This document shows positions 227 through 63,499 of a stretch of 64,000 bases of DNA, in pieces (the stretch's first letter is position 1; every line of letters begins with the position of its first letter). The notes below the pieces were generated by a model. It saw only the letters and a program-made list of their open reading frames with translations, was not told where the DNA came from and did not search any database. This DNA comes from a virus (Duplodnaviria > Heunggongvirae > Uroviricota > Caudoviricetes). The position numbers and the translations under genes are program-made. Location: the IMG/VR virus record IMGVR_UViG_3300018080_000111; one strand, written 5' to 3'.

Positions 227-280
227 CTTCTACTCCTGGAAAAGTTAAAAAGCGAAAACATTATATCATCGCATTTCAAA

Positions 281-1636: not shown

Positions 1637-1651
1637 TAATATTATACTGTT

Positions 1652-1903
1652 TTAGTCTCGTACTTCTCTTGCTTCTTCCTCTGCCGGATCATATTCAAGA
1701 ACCTGTCCAGTTCTATACGTCCCTGCAGGCAGTACAATTGTTTTATGCTCTTGATGGGTTACTTCACTTCCTTGTGGAGCATTTAATTGTAAACTATTAT
1801 CTCCGAATACTTCTTCAAAAACCACAACCTCTTTTCCTGCTGCTGCGTGATAGTGTCCTGTAACTTCTCCTTCTGCCAAATGATTGTTTTCTTTCTTCTT
1901 CAT
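1652..1903 (-). CDS. hypothetical protein (83 aa)
   Basis: ORF immediately downstream (on the leftward strand) of the tRNA. Confidence 0.45.
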   Translation of the reverse strand: MKKKENNHLAEGEVTGHYHAAAGKEVVVFEEVFGDNSLQLNAPQGSEVTHQEHKTIVLPAGTYRTGQVLEYDPAEEEAREVRD

Positions 1904-1918
1904 TTTTTACCCTTTCAA

Positions 1919-3457: not shown

Positions 3458-3638
3458 ATATCCACCTATCTATATTATACTTTTAACCAGGGTTTGATTT
3501 GGGATTTTCCGAACCTCCTCCATTCTCTCGGTAACGTTTGACTAATATACACGTTTCATCCTTACAGTTTTCCGGACCAACACAGTAAGAATACTTTCTT
3601 TTTGGTCCATCACACAGATAAACTTTCATTTTAAGCTC

Positions 3639-3980
3639 CTACTTCAATCTCTTTCGATTCAAAGATCTAAGTTTATTGTAAAACTTGATGGGTTCTTGAA
3701 AAGAATCATATTCTGTATATCTACAATCAAACTCTGGATCAACCAGAGCACCTGGACAATTAGAACACATCGATCCATTCTCCTCTTGATCATATTTACA
3801 AAAGAAACATCCACAACATATATCTGATTCGACATATCCTTCCTTATTAAACCAGATCGACTTTAATTCATTAATATCCCTACTATTCCCTTTTCTCACT
3901 TGATCTGAGATCCATCTCCACATCCTTAGACATTCCTTCCATACATCATCTAACTTAGTTGGCACTTCTATATATTTCAT
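3639..3980 (-). CDS. Cys-rich putative zinc-binding protein (113 aa)
   Basis: Motif CCGCFFC...CSNC...C. Start abuts the stop of the HNH gene. Confidence 0.5.
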   Translation of the reverse strand: MKYIEVPTKLDDVWKECLRMWRWISDQVRKGNSRDINELKSIWFNKEGYVESDICCGCFFCKYDQEENGSMCSNCPGALVDPEFDCRYTEYDSFQEPIKFYNKLRSLNRKRLK

Positions 3981-3981
3981 T

Positions 3982-4491
3982 TTAAGCTCCTACTAGAACC
4001 AGTTCATTGCATGATTGTCTTTTTCTTTTCTTCCTCTTTTTGTAATGGTTTATCTCTTCTTTGGTTTTATTTCCTTTTTTCTGATTACAGGGTTGGCACA
4101 TAACTTGGTAATTGTCTTGATGATTTGGCCCCCTTTTTGATTTGGGAATAATATGATCTTTTGTCATTAAGGTGATTTCTTCCCCATCAATATGGTAGAG
4201 ATTAAGATGGAAAAGAGGTTTCCCATTTTCGGTTTCTCTTTGATCGACACTTAGTACATTTCCGATTTTTCCACAAGAGACACAAATAAGGCTTCTCTCA
4301 AATAGTCGATATCTCTGAGAGGTGATTTTAATTGGAACCAATCCTTTTTCCGATCCAATGAAGATCCTCCTCTTATTCCTATTGTTCTTAGCTGTCCGAA
4401 TATTCCAGAGAAAATGTTTTGGAACAAATCTTAGGATAGAGGTCAGTCCATTTTTCATTTGTATGTTACCAGTTTCATTAATTGGACTCAT
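3982..4491 (-). CDS. HNH endonuclease
   Basis: The C-terminus HIDGEE...DHIIPKSKRGPNHQDNYQVMCQPCNQKKG matches the HNH His-Asn-His/Cys pattern. Confidence 0.75.
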   Translation of the reverse strand: MSPINETGNIQMKNGLTSILRFVPKHFLWNIRTAKNNRNKRRIFIGSEKGLVPIKITSQRYRLFERSLICVSCGKIGNVLSVDQRETENGKPLFHLNLYHIDGEEITLMTKDHIIPKSKRGPNHQDNYQVMCQPCNQKKGNKTKEEINHYKKRKKRKRQSCNELVLVGA

Positions 4492-4817
4492 TTACGTTTC
4501 CTCTAAAACAGGTGAAGCAAAGGGGTTCGTCCTCATACCAGACAGTTTTTCCTGGCTCTAATTCCGTTTGACAGTTGGAACAATTCTCTCCCATAGAATG
4601 TAGTTTCTTTTCAACTTCTTCCAAGGTGGAGCACTTAAACCCCACTAAATTTTTGGAAGATAGATTGGAAAGTAAGAATCCCTCTTCTTGGATTTCAAGA
4701 ACTACAAGTCCTTTTTCACTTGCTCTTTTTCTCAGATTGAATAGTTTCGTAATCTCCCTTTCGCATTAAACCCTATATTTAAAATATAGCCCACTTTTCC
4801 GGGAAGGCCAAATAAAA

Positions 4818-4891
4818 TCTCCCAGGTCAGATTTGAATTGACAACTTCTCGGCCCCAAACCGAGCACTCTGCCAAGTTAAGCTACTGGGAG
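4818..4891 (-). tRNA. tRNA-Pro(UGG)-like
   Basis: Reverse strand reads CTCCCAG-TA-GCTT-AACTTGGCA-GAGT-G-CTCGG-TTTGGGG-CCGAG-AAGTT-GTCAA-TTCAAAT-CTGAC-CTGGGAG-A. The 7-bp acceptor and 5-bp anticodon stems are perfect, the loop is UU-UGG-GG, and the D-loop has A14/G18G19/A21. The T-stem has one A53/C61 mismatch. No encoded CCA. Confidence 0.6.
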
Positions 4892-5118
4892 AAAGAAGAG
4901 AAAAGCATTGAACTCCTAAAATCCAATAGGATCAAATCTCCTTCAGCATTTTCTCTTTTGCTCATATTTCCAATATTTCCCTAATTTTCTTCCATTTCTC
5001 TCCCATTTGTGATATCCGAAGACAGCCTATTAAATCTGTTATCTGGTTTTGTCCTAACATTCCAGGGTCCGACCCATGATACACTTGGCGATGGATAAAT
5101 TGACCATTTTTTCATCTC

Positions 5119-6006
5119 CTACATATCATCTGGGTGACGAAATCCATCAAATACTGGGAATCGGGGAGCCTCTTTCACCCCATAAGGTTGATACCTATAA
5201 CGTGCTATTTGTCCCAGGTACTTATCCGGATTCTCCCAAATTTCCTTTCTCTTCTCATCATCAAAGCCGGTTCCGATGGAGAATTCAATCCCCGTCTTGA
5301 GATCTCGAACCCTCAGATTCCCCAAAGTCCCCGCCGGAACCATTCCGTCTTTGTGGTGACTCCTTTCGGTATGTCCAAAGACATCCTCCTTAGCCTCGTT
5401 TTGGTTATGCATCTTCTCTTCGAACCCAAGTACTACTGCCTCTCCATGTTCAAAACGTTTGATTTTCAACAAATATCCTTCTTTCTCCGTGGATCGTCCA
5501 TTTTTATAGGGTCCTTTGGGGTCTCGGATTATTACTCCCTCATATCCTTCCTCAAGGCACTTCTCTTCAAAGGCATCCAAGACCTCTTGGTTATAGATCC
5601 AGACAGGAAGTACTTTTTTCAGGTGGGGGATACTGTTATTTAGAAGGTCCAGATTGTTCATTCTATCTCCATATGGGACTTCCGTCTTTCCCTGGACCAC
5701 ATAATCAAATACCCAATATTCAAAGTTCTCGGCGTCCTCTGGCTTCCCGGACTTACTTCTCATAATAGTTCCGGTAGCTTCCCCGAAGGCTTTTCCCGGG
5801 ATCATAAGTTCTCCATCACATCCATCCGGAAAGTTCTTTACAACCTCCTCTCGGATATATGGATTAGGAATAGGTTTGAACTTTCTGGAAACCGCCCGCC
5901 CATTGATAACCAGACAACGTACCCCATCCAGTTTAGGGGTCGCAAGGACTGGAAAATTAATAGGCCTATTCGTGTATCTTCCTGCAAGCATTGGTTTCGT
6001 AATCAT
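5119..6006 (-). CDS. ATP-dependent DNA ligase (compact, 295 aa)
   Basis: Motif I KLDGVR (TPKLDGVRC), motif III-like CDGELMI, motif IV-like EGYEGVIIRD, motif V-like LLKIKRFE. The size resembles minimal viral ligases. Confidence 0.75.
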   Translation of the reverse strand: MITKPMLAGRYTNRPINFPVLATPKLDGVRCLVINGRAVSRKFKPIPNPYIREEVVKNFPDGCDGELMIPGKAFGEATGTIMRSKSGKPEDAENFEYWVFDYVVQGKTEVPYGDRMNNLDLLNNSIPHLKKVLPVWIYNQEVLDAFEEKCLEEGYEGVIIRDPKGPYKNGRSTEKEGYLLKIKRFEHGEAVVLGFEEKMHNQNEAKEDVFGHTERSHHKDGMVPAGTLGNLRVRDLKTGIEFSIGTGFDDEKRKEIWENPDKYLGQIARYRYQPYGVKEAPRFPVFDGFRHPDDM

Positions 6007-6015
6007 TTTGTTTTC

Positions 6016-6690
6016 CTAAAGATCAGTCTTTTTGATTTTCTTTAATAATTTTCCTTCGTACCCAAAGAGATACCAGTCATCCCCATTGAATACAGGGATA
6101 ACTCCTCTTTCCCAAAGATCAATTCCAGATTGGTAGGGGTTTTTTCCTTCTGGATGCTTAATGTATTTCCATTTCTTTAGGTTGAAGAAAGAGGAAATAT
6201 AGGCCCCTACAGAATCCACTACAGAATCCCATACAGAAATCCAGGTTTTTAGAAGTTCAAGATCCTTTTTGGAAATTCTGGTTCTCTTTCTGTCTTTAAG
6301 CGGATGAACAATGGGCTTTAAAATTAGTTCCGGAGGAGCCAATTTGGAAAAGTCCAATTGGCAAATCTTCCGAAGAACCTGTTTTTGGTCATCCTCACAA
6401 TTAATTTGATCAACAATAAACCTTCTATCCAAAGGACGATATTCATATTTGTTGACCTTATCATCGTCAAGTCCAAAAAAAGCAGAGATTGAACTATGGG
6501 AATCCGGATAGAAGGTATTTCTGGACTTATCTACTAAAGTTCCTTCTTTGATTTCTTTTCTTTGTTCCCCATTGAAAAAGTAAACTTTTCCTTTTCCATT
6601 GGACACGCATGAAAACCAATTACACATAATTATTCTCCTAATTAATAAAGTCCCCGCACTTTTCCACTCTCCTCCGATAGTCCTCCACAA
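6016..6690 (-). CDS. hypothetical protein (224 aa)
   Basis: ORF in the leftward block. Confidence 0.5.
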   Translation of the reverse strand: MWRTIGGEWKSAGTLLIRRIIMCNWFSCVSNGKGKVYFFNGEQRKEIKEGTLVDKSRNTFYPDSHSSISAFFGLDDDKVNKYEYRPLDRRFIVDQINCEDDQKQVLRKICQLDFSKLAPPELILKPIVHPLKDRKRTRISKKDLELLKTWISVWDSVVDSVGAYISSFFNLKKWKYIKHPEGKNPYQSGIDLWERGVIPVFNGDDWYLFGYEGKLLKKIKKTDL

Positions 6691-6705
6691 AATGTCGTAG
6701 TATAT

Positions 6706-7299
6706 TCAGTCATTTTCAGTTTCCCTCTTCAAATTTGAAAAAGAGTCTCGGCGAATCAAGCCGATGGATTGTTTGTCGCCCCGAAGAGCCAGCGCAACTC
6801 GCTTGCGGCTCAACGGTTTTTTGAACCACGTGGGCGACAAGGATCGCCGTGGGTCTAATAGCTCCGCCGCGCACAACCGTTCGACCGCCTCCTCGATAGT
6901 TGACGGCTTTTCTGCGTCAAATCTCGCTTTTTCTAATAAGAGGTCATAAGCGTACTTTGCGGCCTGCTCGGCGGTTTGAAACCAGTTCTTTCCAAGGAGT
7001 TGTTCACGAACAAACCCTTTACGGCTCATGATGTGATTGGCGTGACCCTCGGATTTACACCCGATTCGTTTGCCTTCGACCGAATAAGCACTGCCTAATG
7101 TTGAGCCAGGAATGACTATATACCACATTAATTCCGGCTCGACCTCCAACTCATCTTCCACAGCTCTTCGCGTAAATATCTCACCCTCCATAATCCTCGC
7201 AGATCTCTTACATATCTCGGCAAACCCTTCGCCCACGTTTTTGGTTCGCCTTACAAACCCAGCGTAAATTGTTATCTTTGCTATTTTCCACCTCAACAA
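6706..7299 (-). CDS. hypothetical protein (197 aa) encoded on a GC-rich island
   Basis: Long ORF. Local GC is visibly higher than the flanks (runs such as gccccgaagagccagcgcaactcgcttgcggctc). Confidence 0.5.
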   Translation of the reverse strand: MLRWKIAKITIYAGFVRRTKNVGEGFAEICKRSARIMEGEIFTRRAVEDELEVEPELMWYIVIPGSTLGSAYSVEGKRIGCKSEGHANHIMSRKGFVREQLLGKNWFQTAEQAAKYAYDLLLEKARFDAEKPSTIEEAVERLCAAELLDPRRSLSPTWFKKPLSRKRVALALRGDKQSIGLIRRDSFSNLKRETEND

Positions 7300-7314
7300 T
7301 TCAAAAATGAACTT

Positions 7315-7557
7315 TTAATTCCAAAACCACCAATCTCGTATCGGTGCCCCATTATTATCACATTTGTGCCAGCCTTCGGATACTTTCTTCTTCCAGTACT
7401 TCTTGGCATCGTCCTTAGTAAGGACTTTATCAATGTAGGAGGTTGCTCCTAAACATCCGTGGATTCCAATAGAGCCAGCGTTCATGGAATAGAACTTGAT
7501 AAAAAGGATGGAAATATTATACCTTAAAGTCCCCATATGCTTTTGTGCCCCTATCAT
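7315..7557 (-). CDS. hypothetical protein (80 aa)
   Basis: First gene of the leftward block. The conserved promoter-like motif is about 30 nt upstream. Confidence 0.4.
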   Translation of the reverse strand: MIGAQKHMGTLRYNISILFIKFYSMNAGSIGIHGCLGATSYIDKVLTKDDAKKYWKKKVSEGWHKCDNNGAPIRDWWFWN

Positions 7558-7582
7558 CCTAAATCCCCCAAAAAGTTTCCCC

Positions 7583-7608
7583 CTTACATTTAAATTATAA
7601 CCTATTTT
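7583..7608 (-). promoter_or_regulatory. conserved 26-bp divergent-promoter motif (plus strand cttacatttaaattataacctatttt; TATAAT on the minus strand), copy 1
   Basis: Identical 26-mer recurs at 31615..31640. Both copies sit in AT-rich divergent intergenic regions, 13-38 nt upstream of a leftward gene's start. Confidence 0.45.
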
Positions 7609-7840
7609 AAAGGAAAAACAAACAAAAAATCCAGAATTTTTAAAATTTTTAGGTATCCAATAATACCCTAATTATTGAACTAAAAACAATTGGTTTCCTA
7701 ATACCATTCCTAAGGCCAAATTATTATACTAAAAAATCCATATTATTTATGCCATTTACTCAATATAATTAATGATATGTAGCAAGGAAGATCACTTTTA
7801 TAGTAAACCCCTTTTTTAATTCAAAAATAAAGGTTTTATA

Positions 7841-22770: not shown

Positions 22771-25700
22771 ATGAATATTATTGAAAATCTGAAGAATAAA
22801 CCAATAATTGAAGAGAAGGATCAGGGAAACCTTCCGGATGCTGTCCTTTGCCGGGTTACTTACAATATATGTAATCTGGGAGAAAGGAATGCAAACAATC
22901 GCATCTATGAGAGAGGGGTCTTTGATAAAGTCCTTGCCGATGAAACTCTTCAGGAAATGATTCAGAATCGAAGACTATTTGGTCAGGCGGAACATCCTAC
23001 GGAGACTCAATCTGATCTTCAACTTACTTCTCATGTTATCCATAAGATGTGGATGGATGAGAATAATGTTTGGCAGACCATGGACGTTCTGGATACTCCT
23101 ATGGGTAGAATTGTGGATAGTTTAATCCGGGCTGAGTGTGGTGTTGGTGTTAGCACTCGGGCAGAGGGAGACCTGGAAGAGTCTGAGGATGACACCGGAA
23201 AGTTCAGTAGGGTGATTCCGGAATCATATGTTTACCGCACGACTGATTTTACTGCGGACCCGAGCACGTTCGGAGTTTTACCTGCCTCTATTAAAAGGAA
23301 TGTACTACCTACGGTTCAGGCCGAGATGGAGAACAAGAGTGCTACATCGGCAGAGAGGGACTTTGCTAAGCAGTTGTTTGAGTCTATTTCTAAGACAGAG
23401 GAATCCAAGGAATCTAAAACCACCGTCGAATCCCTTCTTAAAGAAGATAAGATCAAAGAAGGAACAGAACTCCTTTATGGTGATCAGGAGGTCAAGATAA
23501 TTAAGATTGATGAAGGAAGAGTTCTGGTTGGACTCCCAGGAAAAGAAGGAGACATTGCTATCGAAGGTGCAGAGGTTGCTACTATAGAAGTAGACTCTGG
23601 AAAAGTTCATGTCTGGCCGAAGGAGGAGATGGATATAGATGTTCCTGAGGCAGAACCGGTTGGAGATTTTGAGCCTGAGATGGAGGAGAAAAAGGAGACT
23701 AAGGAGACGGTCAGCCATAAAGGAAGAATTGTCATAACTAAGGATGATTTGAAGTTTGCTGATTCTGAAGATCTTCAAAGATTCCGTAAGATGATGGAAT
23801 TGGATAGAGCGGATCTTGAGGATGGTTTAACTTTAGAGGATCTGGAAGAGAAATGTAGTAAGTCCCACCCCAAGAAGAAAAAGATGAAGGAAGGAATGGA
23901 TCAACTCGTGGCTCGTAAGGAAGAACTCCTGGCCAAAAAAGAAGCTGGAAAATGTACTGAGGATGAGCGAAAGGAGTTGGTAGATATTGAGTCCAAGTTG
24001 AAAGATATGGATGTTGATATTGAGGAAAAATCTCTTCCTACTGAAGGAGGAGTCAGCTCTAAGGTTGCACAAGGAAACGTTCTGAAGAAAGGTGAGGAAA
24101 CTTGGATTGTGAAAAATTCAGACGCTTCTGGAGTTACTGTAACACAACCAGGTGAACCCGCTTCTGAGAAACATATTTCATGGGAATCCTTAGATGATGA
24201 GGACTTCGTAAAGATTGGTGAGAAGGTTGAAATTACAGAAGGATTTGATGTAGGAGACATCGTTCAGATAAAGGATAAAGAAGGAAATACTACAGTTGTT
24301 CCTGAGGCTACCGTTGCTAAAAAAGAGGAACAACAGGAAGGAGTAATGGCGGTAGAAGTTACTGGATCGGATAATGAGGATGAAATGCAATGGTACTCTG
24401 AAGATGAATATCAGATTATTCCTTTGAATAGGAAGAAATGGGAATCTAAGGTAGATGAATCTATTGATGAGGGATTCAAAACTGATCTGAGGAATAAGGA
24501 CAAGGCGGCCATCAAGAAAAGAATTTCAAATATTACTGACAAGATTCTTGCTGGTGAAAAAGTATCTTCTTCTGATAAGAGGTATTGGGAGGACTTCCAC
24601 ACGGCTGTGGAGAAGGTGAAAGGGGATGAGCCTAAAAATGAATCTGTTAATGAAGCAAAGGATGGATTCCTTTGGAGTGACCCAATTTCTGGTGCAAAAT
24701 ATGAGTTGACCAAAGATGACGACGGTTATATCATTTATGCTGATGAACAAGAAATTCTTACAACTAAAGGTGGGGGAGTTAAAATTATTGATGAATTCCA
24801 GGTTGGGGATGGGTTTATTAATATTCTATCAGAAACTGGATCTCACCAATATAGTGAATCTAAAGAAAGTAAATTAATTAAAGAACAATCGGATGAGGGC
24901 ACTGTTTATAGATTTAGTTCTTCTTCCGGATATGATTACGTGGCCAGCTTTAAGGAAGATGGGAGTTTTACTATTGAGGATGAGGAAAATGTATTAGCTC
25001 AAGGAACTTGGTCTGGCGCTGGGGTTACCAAAGTTGGCATAAATGATCCAATAAAGATTATTAATTTCCTACAAGAGCTCCTGTTCGATGGGGGTTATGA
25101 GGAAAGACCGATAGAATCCAAAGACATTAAAATCCAAGAGGCCATCTCCAGAGCAGAAAAGGAAAAGGCCTTAGAAACCATTGAGGAACTTTCCAATGAG
25201 TTGGATTCACAAAAGAACGAAAGTTCGGATTCTAAATTGAGGCTCAAGATGCTTATGAAGAAGATGAAGGAATCCCTCCAGGTTTATGATGAGGTATCCG
25301 CTCTTCGGACTAAGTTGGAGGAAAAGGCCAAAGAGGCCCACAGTCTGAGAGAATCCTTGGAGGAATCTAAATCTAAGTTAGATGAGGAGAAAAAGAAAGG
25401 GAAAGAGCAAATCTTAACCATTTCAGAAACACATAAGAATAAAGTAAATGCTATTGTTGAAAGTAACCAAAATCGTATTAAGATAGTAAAGGAGGAATAT
25501 GAGGAAATAGTTGAAGAGTCTAAAGCGCTAGGTATCACTGAAGGAAAATCAAAGGTCCTCAGTGAATACATAGATCGTAGACTTGCTGAGATTGGTCTGA
25601 GTATTGGGGAAAATACTCGAGCACTTCTCGATGGATGCGAATCCATTGGTGACGTGGAGGATATCCTGGAAAAAACTAAGGATATCCAACGCCGGAATGC

Positions 25701-25812
25701 ACTTCATTCTGAAGGAATCAAGGAAGTTCGCATAAGGAACCATCGTCAGATTGATCCTGAACAGGCAAGGGTGAAAGATGATGTGGATAATGCACTCGAC
25801 GGTATGATGTAA
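22771..25812 (+). CDS. prohead protease (T4 gp21-like N-terminal domain) fused to a long acidic coiled-coil scaffold-like region
   Basis: N-terminal NANNRIYERGVFD...LFGQAEHPTE resembles the gp21-family N..R.Y and G..E.DHP motifs. The remaining 800 aa or so are E/K/D-rich. It lies between the portal and the capsid gene, as in T4. Confidence 0.6.
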   Translation: MNIIENLKNKPIIEEKDQGNLPDAVLCRVTYNICNLGERNANNRIYERGVFDKVLADETLQEMIQNRRLFGQAEHPTETQSDLQLTSHVIHKMWMDENNVWQTMDVLDTPMGRIVDSLIRAECGVGVSTRAEGDLEESEDDTGKFSRVIPESYVYRTTDFTADPSTFGVLPASIKRNVLPTVQAEMENKSATSAERDFAKQLFESISKTEESKESKTTVESLLKEDKIKEGTELLYGDQEVKIIKIDEGRVLVGLPGKEGDIAIEGAEVATIEVDSGKVHVWPKEEMDIDVPEAEPVGDFEPEMEEKKETKETVSHKGRIVITKDDLKFADSEDLQRFRKMMELDRADLEDGLTLEDLEEKCSKSHPKKKKMKEGMDQLVARKEELLAKKEAGKCTEDERKELVDIESKLKDMDVDIEEKSLPTEGGVSSKVAQGNVLKKGEETWIVKNSDASGVTVTQPGEPASEKHISWESLDDEDFVKIGEKVEITEGFDVGDIVQIKDKEGNTTVVPEATVAKKEEQQEGVMAVEVTGSDNEDEMQWYSEDEYQIIPLNRKKWESKVDESIDEGFKTDLRNKDKAAIKKRISNITDKILAGEKVSSSDKRYWEDFHTAVEKVKGDEPKNESVNEAKDGFLWSDPISGAKYELTKDDDGYIIYADEQEILTTKGGGVKIIDEFQVGDGFINILSETGSHQYSESKESKLIKEQSDEGTVYRFSSSSGYDYVASFKEDGSFTIEDEENVLAQGTWSGAGVTKVGINDPIKIINFLQELLFDGGYEERPIESKDIKIQEAISRAEKEKALETIEELSNELDSQKNESSDSKLRLKMLMKKMKESLQVYDEVSALRTKLEEKAKEAHSLRESLEESKSKLDEEKKKGKEQILTISETHKNKVNAIVESNQNRIKIVKEEYEEIVEESKALGITEGKSKVLSEYIDRRLAEIGLSIGENTRALLDGCESIGDVEDILEKTKDIQRRNALHSEGIKEVRIRNHRQIDPEQARVKDDVDNALDGMM

Positions 25813-55217: not shown

Positions 55218-55610
55218 ATGGCGACAAAAATATCTACAATCTGGTCGGAAATTGATCCAAACTTTGTTCCAGACTCTAAAGGTCTTTTAAAGACAGTTAC
55301 AAATGTGGACTCCGTGAAGGCAGCGATAAATAATATCCTGAAGACTCGGAAGGGTGAGCGGGTAATGATTCCTTCCTTTGGGTCCTCTCTTCAGGATATT
55401 CTTTTTGAACCCTTAAATTCTACTGGGATTAAATTGCTTTCTAGAACAATAAAAGAGGACATCGAAAGATGGGACGATCGGGTGGTGATAGAGAATGTGG
55501 AGATTTATCCAAACCCAGATGAATCTAGTTTATCCTTAACAATTGGATTCCGAATAAAGGGATTTACAAATATATTCAGCCATTCGGTTGATTTTGGAGG
55601 TGAGATGTAA
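55218..55610 (+). CDS. baseplate wedge protein gpW/gp25 family
   Basis: ILKTRKGERVMIPSFGSSLQDILFEP matches the GPW_gp25 core. Confidence 0.7.
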   Translation: MATKISTIWSEIDPNFVPDSKGLLKTVTNVDSVKAAINNILKTRKGERVMIPSFGSSLQDILFEPLNSTGIKLLSRTIKEDIERWDDRVVIENVEIYPNPDESSLSLTIGFRIKGFTNIFSHSVDFGGEM

Positions 55611-57343
55611 TGACAGCTAATCCTCTAAGTTACGTGGCATATGATTTCGATCAACTTGTAAGTCAAATACAGAATCGACTTTCTGCCCAGGATGCCTGGA
55701 AGGATATTTATAGAGACGGCGCTGGGCAGATGTTAATTGAGTTCTTAGCGTATGTGGCAAATTTAGGACTTTATTATACAGAGAGAAGAGCAGAGGAGAC
55801 ATATCTCCCGACTGCAAAATTGCTTTCTAGTGTTAAGAATATTGTAGCAGTTTTGAACTATCAGGCTCGGAGGAAAACCTCCTCGACTGGAGTTCTGACT
55901 TTTAGTATTGATACAGCTCTTAGTAAGATAGTATATATTCCAAAATATACTGAGTGCCAAACAACTGGGGGAACTAAATTTGTTACGAATGAATCTGCGG
56001 CAATAGAAAAAGGTCAGACATCTGTAGACGTTAATGCGGTTCAGGGGGAGCTTGTTCAGAAACAGGTTACTTCGGATGGTTCCACAGAACAAGAATATCT
56101 TGTGAATGATGAGGATGTGGAGAATTCCGCGGATACAGATAATCCAACTTTTCGAGTCATTATTGATGGAACAGAATGGACAAAAGTTTCGTCCTTTTTA
56201 TACTCCACATCAACTTCAGAACATTTTCGAGTGATCAATGAGCCCGAAGGAACCATTAGCGTTCTTTTTGGGGATGATGTGAATGGAAAATCTCCTGAGG
56301 CGGGATCCACTATTGTGATACAGTATATTCGAACAGATGGAGCAGATGGAAATGTGACCTATTCTGGATCTCCCTCTATAACGACGGTCAATTCAACCAT
56401 CTATGATGAGGATGGGGATATAGTTACCGTCTCAGTAACCCACGACTCCTCTTTTTTGGGAGGAAGTGATGAGGAGACCATTGAGGAAATTCGGTACAAT
56501 GCTCCTCGGGTATTCAGTACCGGAGAGCGTGCGGTAACAAAGGACGATTTTATCGCAATTTTGGAGAACTACTCTAGCGTTGCCAGTGCAAATGTTTGGG
56601 GAGAAAATGAGGAGGCCGAAGCTTCGGGGGAAACCGCAGACTACGAAATGCTAAATAAGGTGAAGATGTGCCTAGTTTTACAGAGCTGGGAGCTACCAGA
56701 TGCAACATTTAAGTCGACCTTATCAGATTACATTTACGAGTTATCTATGTTGACGGTAAAGTATGAATTTATTACCCCCACCTTCTTGTTAGTAATTCCC
56801 CGTCTTAATGTGAAGGTCAGTCAGGGATACTCTTTATCTCAAACCCAGGCGGACATTGAAGAGGAATTAGCAGACCAGTTTCTTCTAGGAACTACCACCA
56901 AATTAGGAACCAGGATCAAGTATAGCAATGTTCTTTCTGCAGTGGATGATCTGGAGGGTGTTTCGTATACTTCCATGGTTCTAGAGATAAAAAAGGTTCT
57001 CAGCAGTTCATACGATTCATCCTATGATTGGGGAGCCGCTTTGGACGCGGTTGATATTCTTCCAGAAACAGCCCGGGTATTTATTGATGGTACATATGTT
57101 ACTGTGGATGAAAATGGGGGATCTGGAACGGGTTCTTTTGATGGAACTTCTGGCGGATATACTATATCAGGAAGTAGTATAAATTATTCCACAGGAGTGG
57201 TTCTTATGAATATCTCCCCTACTCCAAGTTCAGTTTATATTTTGTATCAGCAAGATGAGGAGAGTCAGTCGATTGTTCCATCTTTCAACCAGATTTGTCG
57301 GTTGTCCGATGTTAATATTGAATCCATTTCCATGGAATCTTAG
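55610..57343 (+). CDS. baseplate J-like protein
   Basis: 577 aa immediately after gpW, as in P2/Mu-type baseplates. Confidence 0.55.
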   Translation: MTANPLSYVAYDFDQLVSQIQNRLSAQDAWKDIYRDGAGQMLIEFLAYVANLGLYYTERRAEETYLPTAKLLSSVKNIVAVLNYQARRKTSSTGVLTFSIDTALSKIVYIPKYTECQTTGGTKFVTNESAAIEKGQTSVDVNAVQGELVQKQVTSDGSTEQEYLVNDEDVENSADTDNPTFRVIIDGTEWTKVSSFLYSTSTSEHFRVINEPEGTISVLFGDDVNGKSPEAGSTIVIQYIRTDGADGNVTYSGSPSITTVNSTIYDEDGDIVTVSVTHDSSFLGGSDEETIEEIRYNAPRVFSTGERAVTKDDFIAILENYSSVASANVWGENEEAEASGETADYEMLNKVKMCLVLQSWELPDATFKSTLSDYIYELSMLTVKYEFITPTFLLVIPRLNVKVSQGYSLSQTQADIEEELADQFLLGTTTKLGTRIKYSNVLSAVDDLEGVSYTSMVLEIKKVLSSSYDSSYDWGAALDAVDILPETARVFIDGTYVTVDENGGSGTGSFDGTSGGYTISGSSINYSTGVVLMNISPTPSSVYILYQQDEESQSIVPSFNQICRLSDVNIESISMES

Positions 57344-57359: not shown

Positions 57360-57872
57360 ATGAGTTGGCGTGATGCTTATGAATGTTTGTGGACATTCCA
57401 ACATATTCGGGATGGAAAAGTAATTTACGAATTTAGGGACAAGAAAAATATACTTGTAGATGAAGGGGAACTTGCAACCATCGACACCTTTTTTAGGGAC
57501 AATGCTTCTCTATATTTTCCAGGGGATTACTTCTATATTGGGCTATATAAAGGGACAGTGGTGGAAACTAGTACCTTGGCCACAATACCAAATGAACCCG
57601 CAGCAGCAAATGGATATGCCAGAATTGCTGTCGAAAGATCCTCGGTGGGATTCCCTACAATTGAGCAGAATGAGGATGGGAATTGGCAGGTTGTGTCTAA
57701 GGAGGTCACATTTACTGCGTCTGGTGGGAATATTGGACCAGTTAATGGGGCGTTTCTCTGCACCTCATCAGATAATACCGGATCTCTTATTGGGGCCGTG
57801 GCGGCAAGTGTGGAAAGAACCATATTGTCTGGTGATAATTCAAAACTTTCCTTAACGTTTAGGCAAAAGTAA
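57360..57872 (+). CDS. tail-fibre-associated adaptor-like protein, paralog A (start re-assigned to ATG 57360)
   Basis: GAGGT RBS 7 nt upstream. Related to 59027..59422 (NGYAR motif). Its C-terminus AVAASVERTILSGDNSKLSLTFRQK is echoed by the remnant at 58921. Confidence 0.5.
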   Translation: MSWRDAYECLWTFQHIRDGKVIYEFRDKKNILVDEGELATIDTFFRDNASLYFPGDYFYIGLYKGTVVETSTLATIPNEPAAANGYARIAVERSSVGFPTIEQNEDGNWQVVSKEVTFTASGGNIGPVNGAFLCTSSDNTGSLIGAVAASVERTILSGDNSKLSLTFRQK

Positions 57873-57875
57873 TTT

Positions 57876-58934
57876 ATGGCTTCAATTTACGATTATTATA
57901 ATACAGGGAATGATAGTTTTCATTCATTAAAAGGATCTGATAATTTAGCAGCACAAATTTTTACTGCCTCTGATGATTACAAGATTTTGTCTGTTAAGTT
58001 GCTATTGCAGCGTAGAACAGGAGATCCGGGGACTGTTACTGTTGAATTGCAAGGGGTGGGAGACTTTGGATCTGGAGAAGTGCCTGATGGTAATGTATTT
58101 GCAACTGGGTCGATTGCAGGAGGGGGTATTACACTTGCTGATGGAGGGGAGTGGGTAGAAATAACTTTTGATTCTGAATATTCATTAACTTCAGGATCTA
58201 AATACTCGATTGTATTGTCAATTTCAGTTGATCAATTTTATCTTAGATGGTTGAATGATAGTTCCTCTCCTTCCTATGCTGGCGGAGCAGCTGCGGTATA
58301 TGCTTTGGGTTCCTGGTCAACAGCAGCTACCCGGGATGAGTTGTTTGAAACTTGGGGAAACCCTGCTGGTACCCCTCCAACTATCACCGATCAAACATCT
58401 TCTCCCCAAGATGCAGATTATGAAGATGATATAACATTCTCTGTCACAGTTACAGGCACTGAACCTATAACATACCAATGGTATAAAGATGGTAGTCCAA
58501 TTTCTGGGGAGACAAATTCTACCTTATCCCTTTCTTCCGTAGACGCAGATGATGGGGGAACTTATTATTGCATAGCAACAAATGCAGGGGGATCTGCTCA
58601 ATCATCTGATATAGATCTTAGAATTATACCCTATATAACTGCACAATCCTCCAGTACTTCTTTTTCTTTGGGGGCATTATCCTCTATCTCAGTTACGGCG
58701 GATGGTTTTCCTTCAGTAACTTATCAATGGTATAAAAATGGAAGTCCTATTTCTGGAGCTACTTCTTCAACATATTCTTTTTATGCAGCATCTTCAGATG
58801 CAGGAACGTATAAATGTATCGCAACAAATGCGGCTGGATCCGCAACTTCTAGTGATATTGTTTTAACTATTGTTTCTAATCCTTATGTATATAGCTTCTT
58901 TAATCTTCCACATGATATAACAAGGGAGCAGTAG
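57876..58934 (+). CDS. receptor-binding/fibre protein with two Ig-like domains and conserved C-terminal FFNLPHDITREQ
   Basis: TYQWYKDGSPISGE..GGTYYCIATNAGGSA appears twice (Ig I-set-like). Confidence 0.55.
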   Translation: MASIYDYYNTGNDSFHSLKGSDNLAAQIFTASDDYKILSVKLLLQRRTGDPGTVTVELQGVGDFGSGEVPDGNVFATGSIAGGGITLADGGEWVEITFDSEYSLTSGSKYSIVLSISVDQFYLRWLNDSSSPSYAGGAAAVYALGSWSTAATRDELFETWGNPAGTPPTITDQTSSPQDADYEDDITFSVTVTGTEPITYQWYKDGSPISGETNSTLSLSSVDADDGGTYYCIATNAGGSAQSSDIDLRIIPYITAQSSSTSFSLGALSSISVTADGFPSVTYQWYKNGSPISGATSSTYSFYAASSDAGTYKCIATNAAGSATSSDIVLTIVSNPYVYSFFNLPHDITREQ

Positions 58935-58994
58935 CATCTTCGGTTGAGAGAACAATTCTTTCTGGGGATAGTTTAATAATTTCATTAAAGATTC
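58921..58994 (+). pseudogene. remnant 3' end of an adaptor-like gene (paralog of 57360..57872)
   Basis: Translates AVASSVERTILSGDSLIISLKIRQK*, against the C-terminus of 57360..57872, AVAASVERTILSGDNSKLSLTFRQK*. Confidence 0.55.
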
Positions 58995-59026
58995 GACAGA
59001 AGTAGTAACTACGATTGGAGATATAA

Positions 59027-59422
59027 ATGGCTGGTTTTTCTAATTATTTAAGAAATGAACTTTTGGACCATCTTTTTGGAAAAGATACATACTCTTCTCC
59101 ATCCAATATATATGTTGCTCTTTCAACTACTGCACCTTCTGGGGATGGGTCTGGGGTCACAGAACCTTCCGGAAATGGATATGCAAGAGCATCTACAGAT
59201 TCTGCGGATTGGTCTTCTGCATCTTCTTTTGAAATACAGAATACCTCAGAAATCTCATTTCCGGAATCCACCGGATCTTGGGGAACAATAACTCATTTTG
59301 TATTATATGATGCTGCGTCTGGTGGGAATATGTTGGCGTATGGTTCTCTTTCTGCCTCGCAAAGTGTAGCTGCTGGGAAAACCGCAAGATTTTCATCGGG
59401 GGCCTTATCGGTAACCCATTAG
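59027..59422 (+). CDS. tail-fibre-associated adaptor-like protein, paralog B
   Basis: 131 aa. Shares ..P.GNGYAR...and overall pattern with 57360..57872. Confidence 0.5.
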   Translation: MAGFSNYLRNELLDHLFGKDTYSSPSNIYVALSTTAPSGDGSGVTEPSGNGYARASTDSADWSSASSFEIQNTSEISFPESTGSWGTITHFVLYDAASGGNMLAYGSLSASQSVAAGKTARFSSGALSVTH

Positions 59423-59431
59423 GATTTATAA

Positions 59432-61090
59432 ATGCCCATCGAAGATTTTACAACATACAGTGAAACTGATCCAGGATCCACTGTTACAAAAACCAGTGAT
59501 ACAATCACCTGGGCCCTTCTCTCTACTAGGAATACAAGCAGTTATGTCTATAAGGATTTTGGCGCGGGTTACTTTGGTGGAGATTTTTCTCATAGGTTTG
59601 AAGTAACCGCCACTGGGTATGGGGGAGTCACCCCTTATGCCTCCGTTTGGGGACTTGCAAATGCGGTTGATGATTTTCAAGGGATAGATGACTCAGGGGG
59701 GGATTATCAGTCGGTAGTTCTAGTAAACAGCGGTGGTACGTACTTTCTGCAGCTGAGGATTTGTGAGGATGGCGGGGTATCCTTATCCAATCAAGCAATC
59801 TCAGTTAGCACTAAGTACTATGTAACCGTTGAGAGGGATGATGATGGTGGAACAAATGGAACCGGTAGATTGACCTTGCGGGTATACACAGGAAATTACT
59901 ATGGGGAATCCGGGGCGGTAGAAATAGGAACGGTTACCTTGGATTGTGGGGTTGGTGAGCAGAATGATTTCCGATATCTATATGCGACATCCTCATTCAA
60001 TACCGGAGACGCTGGAAAAACCCTAAATGCAACCATAGAGAATTTGGATCTACTTCTTGTAGTTGAGCTAGAATCTGCTTTTCCAACCGCAACGGCGTTA
60101 ACGAATATTCCAGAACCAAAGGAACAATTTGGATTTGAAGAGTTAAATGGCGTCTTATATGCAGTCGCTGGGATAACCACTGGGGACACCCATTCAAAAA
60201 CAACTTACGCATTCGATATTTCAGCCGGAACATGGTCTCAAAAAACTGATGCTCCGGTCTCCTTACAGAGTCCAGTTTTAAGGGCTGTAAATGGAAAACT
60301 ATATTTAATAGGTGGGTATAGGAGTGATTTAGGAACTTATTACGACACAGTCTATGAATATGATCCGGATCTGGATTCTTGGACCGCGAAAACTTCTATG
60401 CCGGTAGCGAGAGAAGATCATGCATCCGCCGTTATTAATGATAAGATTTATATTTTTGGTGGTCTGAAATCTCCTCCCCACACCCTGGTTCCTTATGTCG
60501 ATATATATGATCCGGCACTGGATACCTGGGGAACCAGAAGGGCTTGGGCCGCCCCCAGGGCTTTAGGGGATTATGCCTGCTCCTATGAATATAATGGGAA
60601 GATCTATATAGTAAGTTCTACAGCGGACATGTCTGGATACTCCGCTGATTTGAAAGCTACCACAGAAGTATTTGAATACGATCCAGAAACAGATATATTT
60701 ACAGCAAAAACAAATTGTCCTGAGGCAGTTTGTTATAAAGAAGTTTCAAATATAGATGGGGTTCTATATGTGGTAAGTGGGGCTACTGACGATACTGTGA
60801 CATATTCTTTATATGATCAGGTTTATGACATATCCTTAGATTTATGGAAGAAGAGACCCACCTCTTCCTACTCGGCAAGAGGAATCAGCATGGCGGCTTA
60901 TAGTGGAAGTATTTATATCTGTGGTGGATTTGATAATGATTCTGGTCAGTTGGATAGTTTTTACCGATTGACGCCCCCACCAGCTTCCTCTATTTCGGGT
61001 GCTTCTGGAACTTTATCTTTGGTTTCTCGGGTTGATCCGGTAAGCTCCCACTTTTTTAATTTGCCATATGACATAACGAGGGAACAGTAG
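59432..61090 (+). CDS. receptor-binding protein with Kelch-type beta-propeller and C-terminal FFNLPYDITREQ
   Basis: Repeated GKLYLIGGY, DKIYIFGGL, GKIYIVSS, GVLYVVSG and GSIYICGGFD blades. Confidence 0.6.
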   Translation: MPIEDFTTYSETDPGSTVTKTSDTITWALLSTRNTSSYVYKDFGAGYFGGDFSHRFEVTATGYGGVTPYASVWGLANAVDDFQGIDDSGGDYQSVVLVNSGGTYFLQLRICEDGGVSLSNQAISVSTKYYVTVERDDDGGTNGTGRLTLRVYTGNYYGESGAVEIGTVTLDCGVGEQNDFRYLYATSSFNTGDAGKTLNATIENLDLLLVVELESAFPTATALTNIPEPKEQFGFEELNGVLYAVAGITTGDTHSKTTYAFDISAGTWSQKTDAPVSLQSPVLRAVNGKLYLIGGYRSDLGTYYDTVYEYDPDLDSWTAKTSMPVAREDHASAVINDKIYIFGGLKSPPHTLVPYVDIYDPALDTWGTRRAWAAPRALGDYACSYEYNGKIYIVSSTADMSGYSADLKATTEVFEYDPETDIFTAKTNCPEAVCYKEVSNIDGVLYVVSGATDDTVTYSLYDQVYDISLDLWKKRPTSSYSARGISMAAYSGSIYICGGFDNDSGQLDSFYRLTPPPASSISGASGTLSLVSRVDPVSSHFFNLPYDITREQ

Positions 61091-61092
61091 AA

Positions 61093-62361
61093 ATGAGTGA
61101 ATGGCGATTTGATGGTGGCTATCGTTATGACGCTTCCGCAGCTGCTGTGATCGAAGCGGAGATGGAGGTGGAAATCACCTGGCAGTATACTCACCGCCCC
61201 TTTGATGGTTTGGCCGTCGAAATGGAAATGGAGATTGATGTAAATTGGGTCCATGCGGTTTCCCTAGATCTTCTTCGCCTCCTTCCTGAATGGTTCCACA
61301 ACAAACAGATTCTACAAGATTATGTGGATGAGGTTGAACTAGAGGTTGGTAGTTGGTTAACTTATGTCCGAGATATGGTAAAGTTGAACAATCCGAATTC
61401 GGTAGCAGATAGAGAATATCTAAAGAATTTGGCTTCTCTAATTGGTTTGGACATTCCTCCGGAGGATGACTCTACTGAGGATGAAATACGTAGAACAATA
61501 GCTCAGGCAATTGATTGGTATAAGATAAAAGGTACCTATGAATCCATATTAGTTATAGCTCTGATACAAAAGTTTTCAGTCAATATATATGATATGTATA
61601 CTAATGACTATGAAACCTTTTATCTTACAGATTGGTTTGTAGGTGAAGAAGATGAGAATCCCCCCGGGTTCGACTCGACATACTATAAGAGTCCTCATTT
61701 TGGGATTGAGATTCTTTTAAACCAGGTATATACATCGGGCTCTGGATCCGGGGGTTCTGGTGGTAGTGGTTCTGGGGGTTCTTCGGCCAATCATTTATGG
61801 AGAACCACATACCTGGATAACTTTTATGATAACGTGGAACTAACTAGACCGGTTCATACGGTTCCTCATTATATTTTATATTTGAACCCAAAGACGGATG
61901 AGTTTGGGCATGTTATTGAGGTCGATGGAAATATCCAAACCCGGGTTTTAGATGGTTGGGAATTTGCTACAAAATATTTTGATTCCGTTGTAGATAGTTC
62001 TGCTTGGTATTTTGATGATCTGATTTCCTACTTTGATGATTCGGCTACCTCCTTTTTAAATAGCATTACGAAATGGGTGTTAGGTACTGGAAGTGGGGAT
62101 ATTAATCAATCTACTTGGACCCCAGTGTCCCCGGCTCTTACGGGAGCGGTGGATAGTGGAGATATTGAGGTGGATGATGAGAAGATAAGTATTTCCTTCT
62201 TGGTCCCTAAGAATGTGTCTCAAAATGGGATTCGTGAATTAGCGCTTTATACGAATACAGATGTAATTGTATTGGGGGGTACCTTCCCATCGATTGACAA
62301 GGATTCGAGGGTAGAATTAAAGGTAACCATCCAAATTTATAAAGAAGATTTGAGAACATAA
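61093..62361 (+). CDS. tail fibre/baseplate protein with internal GSGSGGSGGSGSGGSS linker
   Basis: 422 aa. Gly/Ser linker at 61738-61790. Confidence 0.5.
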   Translation: MSEWRFDGGYRYDASAAAVIEAEMEVEITWQYTHRPFDGLAVEMEMEIDVNWVHAVSLDLLRLLPEWFHNKQILQDYVDEVELEVGSWLTYVRDMVKLNNPNSVADREYLKNLASLIGLDIPPEDDSTEDEIRRTIAQAIDWYKIKGTYESILVIALIQKFSVNIYDMYTNDYETFYLTDWFVGEEDENPPGFDSTYYKSPHFGIEILLNQVYTSGSGSGGSGGSGSGGSSANHLWRTTYLDNFYDNVELTRPVHTVPHYILYLNPKTDEFGHVIEVDGNIQTRVLDGWEFATKYFDSVVDSSAWYFDDLISYFDDSATSFLNSITKWVLGTGSGDINQSTWTPVSPALTGAVDSGDIEVDDEKISISFLVPKNVSQNGIRELALYTNTDVIVLGGTFPSIDKDSRVELKVTIQIYKEDLRT

Positions 62362-62371
62362 GAGGTAAGAA

Positions 62372-63499
62372 ATGGCCACTAATATTGGAAATCAGGTCGT
62401 GAACTTGTTGTATCACTCTCGTGCCGATAGTGGTACAGTGAATAAAAGATTCGTTGGAATACGAAAGACTGGAATATATTCTGGGGGATATCTCTCTATT
62501 GTGGACAATTCTCATGCAAGTTTATCCACTTTAGTATGTGAGATTACTGATGGGACATATCAAGTAAAAATCTTAACTGGATCTGCGGTAAGTATAGCGG
62601 TAGCTTCTGCGACCCCCTATCTGGTTTTGAGGTGGGTGTATACTGGAAGCGCAACGGCGGATTACATGTCTATTCTGGCGGTTGCTTCTCCGGCAACAAA
62701 TGATTTAGTTGTTGGTATGTGTACCTTCACTGGAGGTGGGAATTTACAAGGATTCGATTACTCCGAAAGAACGTCCCCAAATACCCAGGACCTGTTTTTG
62801 AAGGTCGAGCCAACTGAGGATACCGAACTCCGGGTTCGTGTCAGAGCCGGCCGGATTCAAAATGGAAAAGAAACTATCAGTATTCCTGACCAAAAAACAA
62901 GTCTATTTACTCTTCCATCGTCGAATAGCAAAATTTATTTGGTTTATGTAAATCGAGCAACCGGGGCGATATCAATTGATAGTTCTGGAACTGCTGCGGC
63001 ATCTCCGGTAGCTCCTAATTACGACGGAAAATTGGTCCTTGCTGAGATAACTCTAACATCTACTGCTACAAATATCACATCAAGCAATATTCAGGATGTT
63101 CGGGATTTTACAAACAACTCATATGACCCGGACGATTCCACCCTTGAGGTGAATAGTAATGGAAAATTATCTCTAAAAGATTCTGGTATTCCTTCCACAA
63201 AGTTTAAAACATACGATAGTGGTTGGTTTGCGGTGAGCACCGGAACTACCTATACGAAGGCACACGGGTTGGGATATGAGCCTTTTATGGTCCAGTTGTG
63301 GTTAAGTGATTCTCCCTTTGGAACTGATTTAGTTCTTCCTCCACCACATGGGAGGCAATTTCTTTATGGGATGTGCGTCGTAGATTTGGATTCCACAAAT
63401 ATTAGAGTCCGGGGATCTGGAAGGATCTTTGATTGTATCGACAAAGATGGAAATGTGAAATCGGTATCATCCGGATACGCCAGAATAAAGGCCATATAA
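62372..63499 (+). CDS. tail fibre protein, tandem paralog 1
   Basis: PYLVLRW..Y.......Y..I.A.AS....NDL..G.C.F.G.....FDYS.R paralogous to the next ORF. Confidence 0.5.
   Translation: MATNIGNQVVNLLYHSRADSGTVNKRFVGIRKTGIYSGGYLSIVDNSHASLSTLVCEITDGTYQVKILTGSAVSIAVASATPYLVLRWVYTGSATADYMSILAVASPATNDLVVGMCTFTGGGNLQGFDYSERTSPNTQDLFLKVEPTEDTELRVRVRAGRIQNGKETISIPDQKTSLFTLPSSNSKIYLVYVNRATGAISIDSSGTAAASPVAPNYDGKLVLAEITLTSTATNITSSNIQDVRDFTNNSYDPDDSTLEVNSNGKLSLKDSGIPSTKFKTYDSGWFAVSTGTTYTKAHGLGYEPFMVQLWLSDSPFGTDLVLPPPHGRQFLYGMCVVDLDSTNIRVRGSGRIFDCIDKDGNVKSVSSGYARIKAI

Follow-up and report, generated by a model that had tools for sequence, protein, structure and literature searches.

Host-range modules of phages are usually described as a constant N-terminal anchor followed by a variable C-terminal tip. 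Here we describe what may be the opposite arrangement in a 64,000-nucleotide (nt) stretch of DNA from an uncultured tailed virus (Caudoviricetes; IMG/VR record IMGVR_UViG_3300018080_000111), referred to below as the window, in which two otherwise unrelated proteins, RBP1 and RBP2, end in the same dodecapeptide (FFNLPHDITREQ and FFNLPYDITREQ). Their designation as receptor-binding proteins (RBPs) is drawn from their domain content alone. The two genes lie in the baseplate module of a myovirus, directly ahead of a gene for a putative baseplate wedge protein, and we argue that the dodecapeptide belongs to a C-terminal tail which would act as a short docking peptide for the N-terminal arm of that wedge protein. 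Judging from the sequences, we consider the odds of such a contact slightly better than even.

The closest functional analogue appears to be the Hoc protein of phage T4, for which the literature (PMC10385173) describes a conserved C-terminal virion-binding element and variable, outward-facing Ig-like domains, an organization kept across many phages. RBP1 and most of its counterparts in related phages may be built along similar lines, the conserved tail coming after one to three Ig domains; RBP2 has no Ig domain. Hoc differs in that its C-terminal element is a folded domain bound to capsid hexamers, whereas here the tail is a coil of 12–18 residues and the genes are part of the baseplate module. 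The adhesins considered here also appear to be translationally coupled to a wedge protein, or in some relatives fused to it, and include non-Ig bodies such as Kelch. No homology to the capsid-binding domain of Hoc was found among the Pfam matches of the window and its relatives, which are to Ig and Kelch domains and, weakly, to DUF4082, sortilin/BNR and discoidin.

Wedge subunits of the gpI/TssG/gp7 type hold peripheral RBP-like proteins by flexible extensions. N-terminally anchored fibres and tailspikes (P2 gpH, T7 gp17 and the fibre of cyanophage A-1(L)) resemble the present locus in combining a constant baseplate anchor with an exchangeable part at the periphery of the wedge. They differ in polarity and in the nature of the anchor: here it is the C-terminus that stays constant and the N-terminal or central parts that vary, the anchor is a peptide instead of a trimeric domain, and the proposed socket is the N-terminal arm of a gpI-like subunit. 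In A-1(L), the fibre shoulder binds an insertion of gp31B as well as a loop at the C-terminus of gp32, a gpI-like subunit located at the wedge periphery which helps hold the long tail fibre (PMC10966104). In the type VI secretion system, loops of TssG bind the N-terminal shoulder of TssK trimers, whereas an arm and a C-terminal peptide are proposed here. Donor-strand complementation in chaperone-usher pilins, like split-tag pairs, also relies on a short terminal segment which completes or extends the beta structure of a partner. A group of relatives (loci L054–L060) resembles this in that the wedge gene opens with the sequence for the adhesin's last Ig strand; in the window, however, RBP1 has complete Ig domains, and what the proteins share is an additional tail. 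Finally, the two small genes which precede the adhesin genes belong to the same family (PF23140; PDB 8jou) as gp80, the fibre I protein of podophage GP4. In that podovirus gp80 fibres are arranged around the tail adaptor, whereas here the family occurs in a myovirus baseplate module. What would be new relative to these systems is an anchor-plus-variable-module design with reversed polarity, a peptide-sized anchor and a socket formed by a wedge arm.

A six-frame search of the window found exactly two copies of the dodecapeptide (Table 1), one at the end of RBP1 (352 amino acids (aa); ...IVLTIVSNPYVYSFFNLPHDITREQ, with the family tail NPYVYSFFNLPHDITREQ) and one at the end of RBP2 (552 aa; ...LSLVSRVDPVSSHFFNLPYDITREQ, also given as ...VDPVSSHFFNLPYDITREQ). 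When the two proteins are compared by BLASTP, the alignment is confined to the last 25 residues, 15 of which are identical (pairwise E=2e-5), and no other part aligns at better than E=1. Their Pfam domains are equally distinct, two Ig_3/I-set domains in one and Kelch in the other. At the DNA level the dodecapeptides differ at 7 of 36 nt: five of the 11 shared residues (F, L, D, T and E) use different synonymous codons, Leu for example being ctt in one and ttg in the other, and a single codon difference, H/Y, is non-synonymous. A preliminary description of this stretch, made from its letters alone, had reported the common ending, the lack of further similarity and the diverged codons, and all three hold. 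It had also argued that selection acts at the protein level and that exchangeable modules bear a conserved tag at the C-terminus, and this is supported by the recurrence of the tail in related phages.

A total of 157 related loci were collected using the baseplate J protein and then the gpI-like wedge protein as anchors; all of the sequences compared are metagenomic. A search for the motif at RBP C-termini in related phages, as the preliminary description had suggested, was positive: these loci encode 46 distinct proteins with a recognisable tail at the C-terminus, a recurrence which, on the sequences, is much beyond chance. Their consensus reads (T/V)V..NPY.YN-h-F-(N/D)-L-x-PHI-D-x-x-R with 1–6 residues after it, where PHI is the residue in front of the invariant Asp. 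The proteins are 215–896 residues long and their bodies match Kelch and one to three Ig domains or, weakly, DUF4082-like, sortilin/BNR and discoidin-type families. In most, the tail is directly preceded by an Ig domain. This is not so in the Kelch proteins, which include RBP2 and its orthologues in L001 and L150 (553 aa, tail FFNLPHDISREQ) and have only the last ~12 residues in common with the other tailed proteins, so that the dodecapeptide represents the minimal common unit. Nor is the tail a general appendage of Ig domains, since among 120 generic Ig-domain proteins retrieved with RBP1 it occurs in only three, the query itself, P0124 and P0160.

Chance, or a very recent and functionless duplication of a 3′ gene end, would have been consistent with the presence of only two copies in the window and with the recent acquisition of RBP1 (see below), and the preliminary description had named absence of the motif elsewhere as the observation that would point this way. 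The motif is present elsewhere, in 46 distinct tails from phages whose wedge proteins are as little as ~45% identical, and the synonymous divergence between the two window copies looks saturated; the relatives thus already refute this explanation, whose probability we put at practically nil.

Other searches for the tail gave less. A degenerate DNA pattern back-translated from the dodecapeptide had no match in a collection of viral contigs, because the exact subtype is rare and the window is absent from that collection. A 48-aa tail profile run against a set of 5.8 billion proteins, a search limited by its word index, gave one match among 43 candidates collected, and a HMMER profile made from a five-row alignment had 336 positions contributed by two long rows, was swamped by giant multi-Ig proteins and is unfit as a census. 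No description of the tail was found in the literature in what were narrow searches. Two of the contigs come from bins assigned to cellular organisms. L097, a 179,096-base pair (bp) contig (JAHQJS010000001.1) binned as the Asgard archaeon 'Candidatus Borrarchaeum weybense', has the same baseplate module; its tailed adhesin is 704 aa long (…NPFNLPLDADRVT) and its wedge protein shares 51% identity with that of the window. Either a phage contig was mis-binned here or the bin hints at the host. The other, L098, is short and belongs to a metagenome-assembled genome of Caldisericota.

The sequence subtype of the tail follows the wedge protein encoded in the same locus and not, as far as the alignments tell, the body of the adhesin. 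Kelch bodies carry tails of the form FFNLP[HY]DI[TS]REQ next to WRFD or WHFD arms (window, L001, L150), and tails of the form ILNM.LD..R next to WYLD arms (L041, L112). Tails of RBP1-like bodies likewise agree with the local wedge arm. Where one genome has two tails, these are identical at 9 of 10 positions (window), 8 of 10 (L099) and 7 of 10 (L011), against a between-genome mean of 4.8; only 0.8%, 2.5% and 8% of between-genome pairs reach 9, 8 and 7, respectively. A covariation scan of ~3,500 position pairs (17 tail positions against ~270 variable wedge columns in 39 sequence pairs) placed at the top, by normalised mutual information (NMI), the pairs formed by tail residue -1, which precedes the invariant tail Asp, with wedge positions W+2 (0.82) and W+8 (0.81). 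The wedge arm has two PHI-D units, and these positions hold their PHI residues. After clustering at 70% identity, tail Leu is found with Leu/Leu in the arm in 12 of 12 cases and a non-Leu residue with non-Leu/Leu in 7 of 8 (table 12/0, 1/7; Fisher p=1e-4). Substitutions are of like kind: F, Y or H in the tail with F/Y in the arm (window lineage, L009), T with S/S (L044), S with A (L024), I or V with I (L073, L008, L052, L032, L033), and L with L/L in 24 of 24 cases. Ranking these pairs against every other wedge column controls in part for common descent but does not prove contact.

The C-terminus of the adhesin and the N-terminus of the wedge protein are also linked in other ways. Adhesin bodies are fused in frame to the wedge protein in L053 (1019-4885) and P0113 and, independently, in P0055 (L104 3949-). 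The fused bodies include DUF4082-like, beta-propeller-like and three Ig domains, the fusion proteins are 1288, 720 and 534 aa long, and in both types of fusion the last Ig domain joins the wedge protein at residue ~35-44. Neither the distal tail nor the initial ~35-43 residues of the arm, with its W-PHI-D unit, are then present. In L054–L060 the gene boundary (stop, AAGGA, ATG) falls within the F–G loop of an Ig domain (L054 2268-2360, L058 5812-5900; also L056, L057, L059 and L060). Strand F is the last one encoded by the adhesin open reading frame (ORF), which ends ...YTCRVTN(T/D)A, and strand G opens the wedge ORF (M(S/G)TVI..PITIT), followed by another Ig domain and the wedge protein proper. 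In L054 and L058 the Ig_2 profile match covers positions 5-66 of 79 with the adhesin alone and 5-78 of 79 when the wedge N-terminus is added, a gain of 3-4 bits.

Tail-like segments are further found in cis. Wedge protein P0099 (L157 5001-6284), from a J-gp80-I locus without an adhesin gene, has the N-terminus MSEETSLFEVISDISREGVIADLRSDDGYYSD, in which such a segment stands directly before the arm motif; D-I-S-R-E is kept, the Arg codon is CGA and no start codon follows. L072 (2125-) has a similar segment at its wedge N-terminus (the two cis tail-like N-termini read MSEETSLFEVISDISREG... and ENLFALNFDMGW...), and in L031 (1-60) the tail runs in frame into the wedge ORF. These cases were detected with a hidden Markov model of the tail; an earlier regular expression for tail, Arg and W-motif had found none. 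In P0009/L027 an additional DUF4082-like domain is fused in front of an intact W-motif and a tailed adhesin gene is still present upstream. Linkage of the two termini, whether covalent, through a split domain or, in the window, through the tail, is therefore a recurrent theme. On the basis of P0099, L072 and L031 it is possible, if rather doubtful, that the wedge arm has three PHI-D units of which the tail supplies a copy of the first in trans, so that adhesin and wedge protein would form a natural split plug and socket.

In 41 non-redundant loci the wedge gene is immediately preceded by a tailed gene. At 11 of 40 junctions the stop codon overlaps the start codon (TAATG), and most of the others are spaced by a few nt, the window by 2 nt. 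For the invariant tail Arg the codon is AGG or AGA at 39 of 40 junctions, compared with a genome-wide AGR fraction of ~0.60, and by AGG at 55%, compared with about 20-23% genome-wide. Together with the next, usually G-initial, codon it forms AGGG or AGAG 8–14 nt before the wedge start codon; in the window (61079-61095) the AGG GAA codons make up a Shine-Dalgarno-like AGGGAA 8–13 nt upstream of the wedge ATG. The Arg codon would double as wedge ribosome-binding site, so that two constraints bear on the final two or three residues, and the adhesin and the wedge protein are likely to be translationally coupled. This raises the alternative that the conservation is mainly an effect of nucleic acid or gene architecture, the tail-coding sequence acting as ribosome-binding and coupling signal or as a recombination linker and the peptide having no binding role. 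The Arg codon bias, the AGGG/AGAG sequences and the TAATG overlaps are all in its favour, as is the position of the RBP1 insertion junction exactly at the end of the tail-coding sequence. We nevertheless regard it as very unlikely. Upstream of the Arg, amino acids are conserved with free choice of codons, both between the window copies and among the 46 DNA-divergent tails, and the window copies, 81% identical over 36 nt, are too dissimilar for efficient homologous exchange. RBP1 retains its tail with no wedge gene behind it, the P0099 cis tail has neither an AGR Arg codon nor a start codon to serve, and the like-with-like covariation with wedge residues is left unexplained. The upstream amino-acid conservation, the RBP1 tail and the CGA-encoded cis tail cannot be accounted for by a nucleic-acid layer.

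The product of ORF 61093-62361 is assigned as a P2 gpI/TssG-like wedge subunit from three converging indications. Its match to Pfam Tail_P2_I (PF09684) is marginal (22.8 bits against a cut-off of 20.6; E=9e-5). The W-J-I-fibre order fits a gpI-like wedge gene, with four extra genes between J and I. An AlphaFold2 model (mean predicted local distance difference test score, pLDDT, 79.6) matches in Foldseek, with probability 1.00, baseplate chains of a Streptomyces contractile injection system, HFTV1, A-1(L), phiCD508 and P1 (9gtp_A, 9h4p_BD, 8kea_c and 9gb2_M, with E values of 1e-4 to 7e-4, and 9vzk_k), and more weakly TssG (6n38_G); the template modelling scores are low (0.15-0.39) because these targets are much shorter. 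The protein has an identical copy, P0001, on a 144,859-bp metagenomic contig.

Where a gpI-like gene directly follows J, with neither gp80 nor adhesin, its product lacks an arm and starts at an LDLL.L.PEKF helix; in loci with gp80 and/or adhesins it usually has an extra N-terminal arm of ~57 residues. The arm begins M..W-x-PHI-D-x-G-x-x-PHI-D in all 41 tail-associated pairs from the loci gathered with J and the gpI-like protein as anchors, and over 109 sequences D13 is invariant and D7 nearly so. Modelled alone, it is a coil without secondary structure (pLDDT 50-59). The tail is similarly disordered in the RBP1 model, which comprises a beta-sandwich, two complete Ig domains (pLDDT 97-98) and a coil at residues 334-352 where pLDDT falls from 81 to 43 past the last Ig strand. 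SpyTag-like isopeptide chemistry was considered and rejected, as the arm has no conserved Lys.

The main competitor for the role of socket is the Gp80-like protein; the preliminary description had proposed the adaptor-like products of genes 57360 and 59027 as partners of the tail. The tail could dock onto this protein or, in a variant, the tail and the two arm units could fill three equivalent pockets of a threefold-symmetric partner (a Gp80 trimer or J), thereby bridging adhesin and wedge. Gp80-like #1 is a constant component of the clade, located between J and the adhesin genes in essentially all tailed loci, and in the window a Gp80 paralogue precedes each adhesin gene. Equivalent pockets would yield like-with-like covariation of the three units, and the arm persists in loci which have gp80 and no tail. 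The number of gp80 genes does not, however, track the number of tails: L001 and L150 have two gp80 genes and one tail, L011 and L099 have two tails and one or no intervening gp80, and many loci have gp80 without any tailed protein. Four loci (L096, L137, L141, L143) have gp80 but a wedge N-terminus of only 14-25 residues, and no adhesin-gp80 fusion was seen, against several adhesin-wedge fusions, cis tails and split Ig domains. Gp80-like #2 (131-133 aa) occurs solely in front of Kelch-type adhesins, directly upstream of them (window and, by tblastn, L001, L150 and L112), whatever the tail subtype, and is for this reason more likely a partner of the Kelch body than a receptor of the tail, which suggests that the two form a two-gene cassette. 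We therefore do not favour the adaptor-like proteins and consider docking onto Gp80 unlikely, although Gp80-like #1 is a possible co-receptor; synteny, translational coupling, fusions and covariation favour the wedge protein.

The gp80 genes also bear on the origin of the tandem adhesins. The closest relatives, L001 (J 89% identical) and L150 (wedge protein identity 81-84%, from BLASTP and global alignment), have the order J-gp80#1-gp80#2-Kelch-I and no RBP1, so that RBP1 would be a recent insertion. L153 has J-gp80-RBP1-like-I, with the RBP1 homologue P0124 between gp80 and I. In the window, the RBP1 stop codon is overlapped by a relic of a gp80#1-type gene, after which come the same spacer and gp80#2 as in L001. 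The relic DNA is 78% identical to the end of the L001 gene and 67% to that of the window's own gp80#1, with mostly synonymous differences, and its ending GDSLII.LKIR.K is present in intact gp80 genes elsewhere, such as that of L046. To judge by its sequence, the relic lies where the RBP1 insertion ends on the right. The arrangement is most simply explained if a J-gp80-RBP1-I genome and a J-gp80-gp80#2-Kelch-I genome underwent one unequal crossover at a microhomology of 9 nt (GGAGCAGTA), which would have stacked two adhesin cassettes in one phage. The RBP1 tail has the lineage-specific form FFNLP.DI.REQ, consistent with selection to fit the resident wedge protein. A programmed -1 frameshift from RBP1 into the relic frame (giving RBP1-GAVASSVERTIL...) is unsupported: the 17-nt stretch between the -1-frame stop (58913-58915) and the RBP1 stop contains no X_XXY_YYZ slippery site, and the RNA downstream folds with z=-1.36. 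Neither promoters nor terminators were enriched.

The preliminary description had offered attachment, chaperone recognition or processing as roles of the tag. The evidence favours attachment; none was found for the other two. C-terminal chaperone and auto-processing modules exist in phage fibres, and a folding, processing or sorting signal, removed or irrelevant in the mature virion, would suit a segment which is short, terminal and predicted to be disordered and whose invariant D and R could form a recognition or cleavage site. Intramolecular chaperone domains are, however, ~100-150 residues long, and no Pfam match to a Peptidase_S74-type chaperone or auto-cleaving domain, with its Ser-Lys, was found, the shared element being 12-18 residues. 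No features of LPXTG, PEP-CTERM or type IX secretion system C-terminal domain sorting signals were found either: there is no hydrophobic segment, the tail ends 1–6 residues past the Arg, and it belongs to a structural module of a phage. No chaperone or protease gene is conserved with the tail, its only constant neighbours being gp80 and the wedge gene, and a signal would not explain the matching of subtypes, the cis tails or the joint deletion of tail and arm in the fusions. We give it little chance.

That the tail attaches the adhesins to the baseplate, whatever the exact socket, is in our judgement quite probable. In the mechanism which we favour, the dodecapeptide would be the core of a docking tail of 12–18 residues, fixing variable, monomer-like adhesin modules (Ig, Kelch, DUF4082, BNR, discoidin) to the periphery of the baseplate, most likely at the N-terminal arm which the gpI/TssG-like wedge protein, the product of the next gene downstream, possesses. 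The arm would provide two aromatic-x-PHI-D units (W-x-PHI-D and Y-x-PHI-D) and the tail a third, L-x-PHI-D-x-x-R, and the three may fold together only within the complex. Recombination would exchange the bodies without disturbing the match between tail and wedge protein. Since the socket is constant within a genome, one phage could mount several adhesins, here RBP1 and RBP2. Docking onto the arm would account for unrelated bodies with a single tail, for near-identical tails within a genome, for a tail subtype which follows the wedge protein, and for two segments which are conserved yet disordered alone and dispensable once the proteins are fused. The sequences and models show the conservation and position of the tail, the synteny, the covariation, the fusions and the predicted disorder of both segments; the physical contact, its stoichiometry and the receptor-binding role of the bodies are inferred.

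Several observations weigh against docking onto the arm. The covariation rests on 39-41 related pairs with ~8 independent non-Leu lineages, and that of the tail with gp80 and J, computed on 16-20 pairs, gives many spurious values of NMI=1, these being too few sequences; covariation of three like units could also come from equivalent pockets of a third, symmetric partner, as outlined above. RBP1 and the first adhesins of L011 and L099 do not adjoin the wedge gene, and part of the conservation of the last residues lies at the nucleic-acid level. The PHI-D arm is also present in lineages without a tailed protein (L014/L029, L046, L154, L125 and others), so that it must have some tail-independent function, and distant clades without tailed proteins have arms with three or four PHI-D units. 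Finally, L155 and L156 keep the tail though the arm W, otherwise near-invariant, is replaced by L or I; the idea that the arm Trp is lost together with the tail was rejected for this reason.

The positions of the features discussed are listed in Table 1. The structural module of the window includes a T4-type prohead protease domain and a tail sheath, followed by the baseplate genes in the order gp25/W, Baseplate_J, Gp80-like #1, RBP1, Gp80-like #2, RBP2, gpI-like and fibre-like (62372). Megablast of the 55-64 kb region against a phage genome collection gave no DNA-level match.

Table 1. Genes and sequence elements of the baseplate region, with positions in the window.
Feature	Position	Strand	Basis and remarks
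GPW_gp25	starts 55218		Pfam
Baseplate J-like wedge protein	55610..57343	+	Pfam PF04865; context
Gp80-like #1	57360..57872	+	170 aa, start MSWRD as in homologues; PF23140 29.7 bits (cut-off 27)
RBP1	57876..58934	+	N-terminal beta-sandwich (~24-125), linker, two Ig_3 domains (169-333), tail
RBP1 dodecapeptide FFNLPHDITREQ	58896..58931	+	full family tail NPYVYSFFNLPHDITREQ begins 58878
gp80#1-type relic	58925..59005	+	last 26 codons, GAVASSVERTILSGDSLIISLKIRQK and stop; -1 frame relative to RBP1, no start codon
Gp80-like #2	59027..59422	+	131 aa; PF23140 144.9 bits; PDB 8jou_a E=6e-12
RBP2	59432..61090	+	N-terminal domain (~1-215), Kelch beta-propeller, tail; no Ig before tail
RBP2 dodecapeptide FFNLPYDITREQ	61052..61087	+	stop TAG 61088-61090, 2 nt before wedge gene ATG
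Putative P2 gpI/TssG-like baseplate wedge protein	61093..62361	+	proposed tail receptor
Wedge N-terminal arm	61093..61263	+	57 aa, MSEWRFDGGYRYD...; W-x-PHI-D-x-G-x-x-PHI-D at 61102-61131

Some further features of the window and its relatives were recorded. The fibre-like genes at 62372-63499 and from ~63516 are tandem paralogues, with direct repeats across the region (62471/63615, 62612/63780 and 62031/63923); L153 likewise has two genes of ~375 aa at this position. In relatives whose contigs extend beyond the point where the window ends, the tail-fibre genes are directly followed by a run of sugar-modifying genes (L150 6851-14614, L151 14211-21788, L153 8686-13134) of glycosyltransferase, methyltransferase, sulfotransferase, pyruvyl-transferase and epimerase-like types, an unusual load for a structural module. 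The prohead protease domain forms the N-terminal ~140 residues of a 1013-aa ORF (22771-25812) which matches the T4-type prohead core protease (Peptidase_S77) and is much longer than usual prohead proteases. ORFs and GC skew indicate the minus strand up to ~7.8 kb (1-7800) and the plus strand from there (7841-64000).

In this uncultured clade of large myoviruses from sediments and anaerobic habitats, a C-terminal peptide of 12–18 residues is constant in the adhesins and everything in front of it changes. If the tail is a self-sufficient docking peptide, this would explain how two or more different adhesins can occupy one baseplate position. The match of tail residue -1 to two wedge residues would then amount to a sequence rule, testable by compensatory mutation. 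Intermediates between covalent fusion, split domain and peptide docking are moreover documented within a single protein family. If the plug-and-socket reading is true, some 12 residues would be enough to mount any folded binder on the baseplate of a contractile tail, and several adhesins could be displayed at once and exchanged by recombination while the socket stays fixed. The tail would then also be a very small, portable tag for baseplate display, by which phages and tailocins might be retargeted or decorated.

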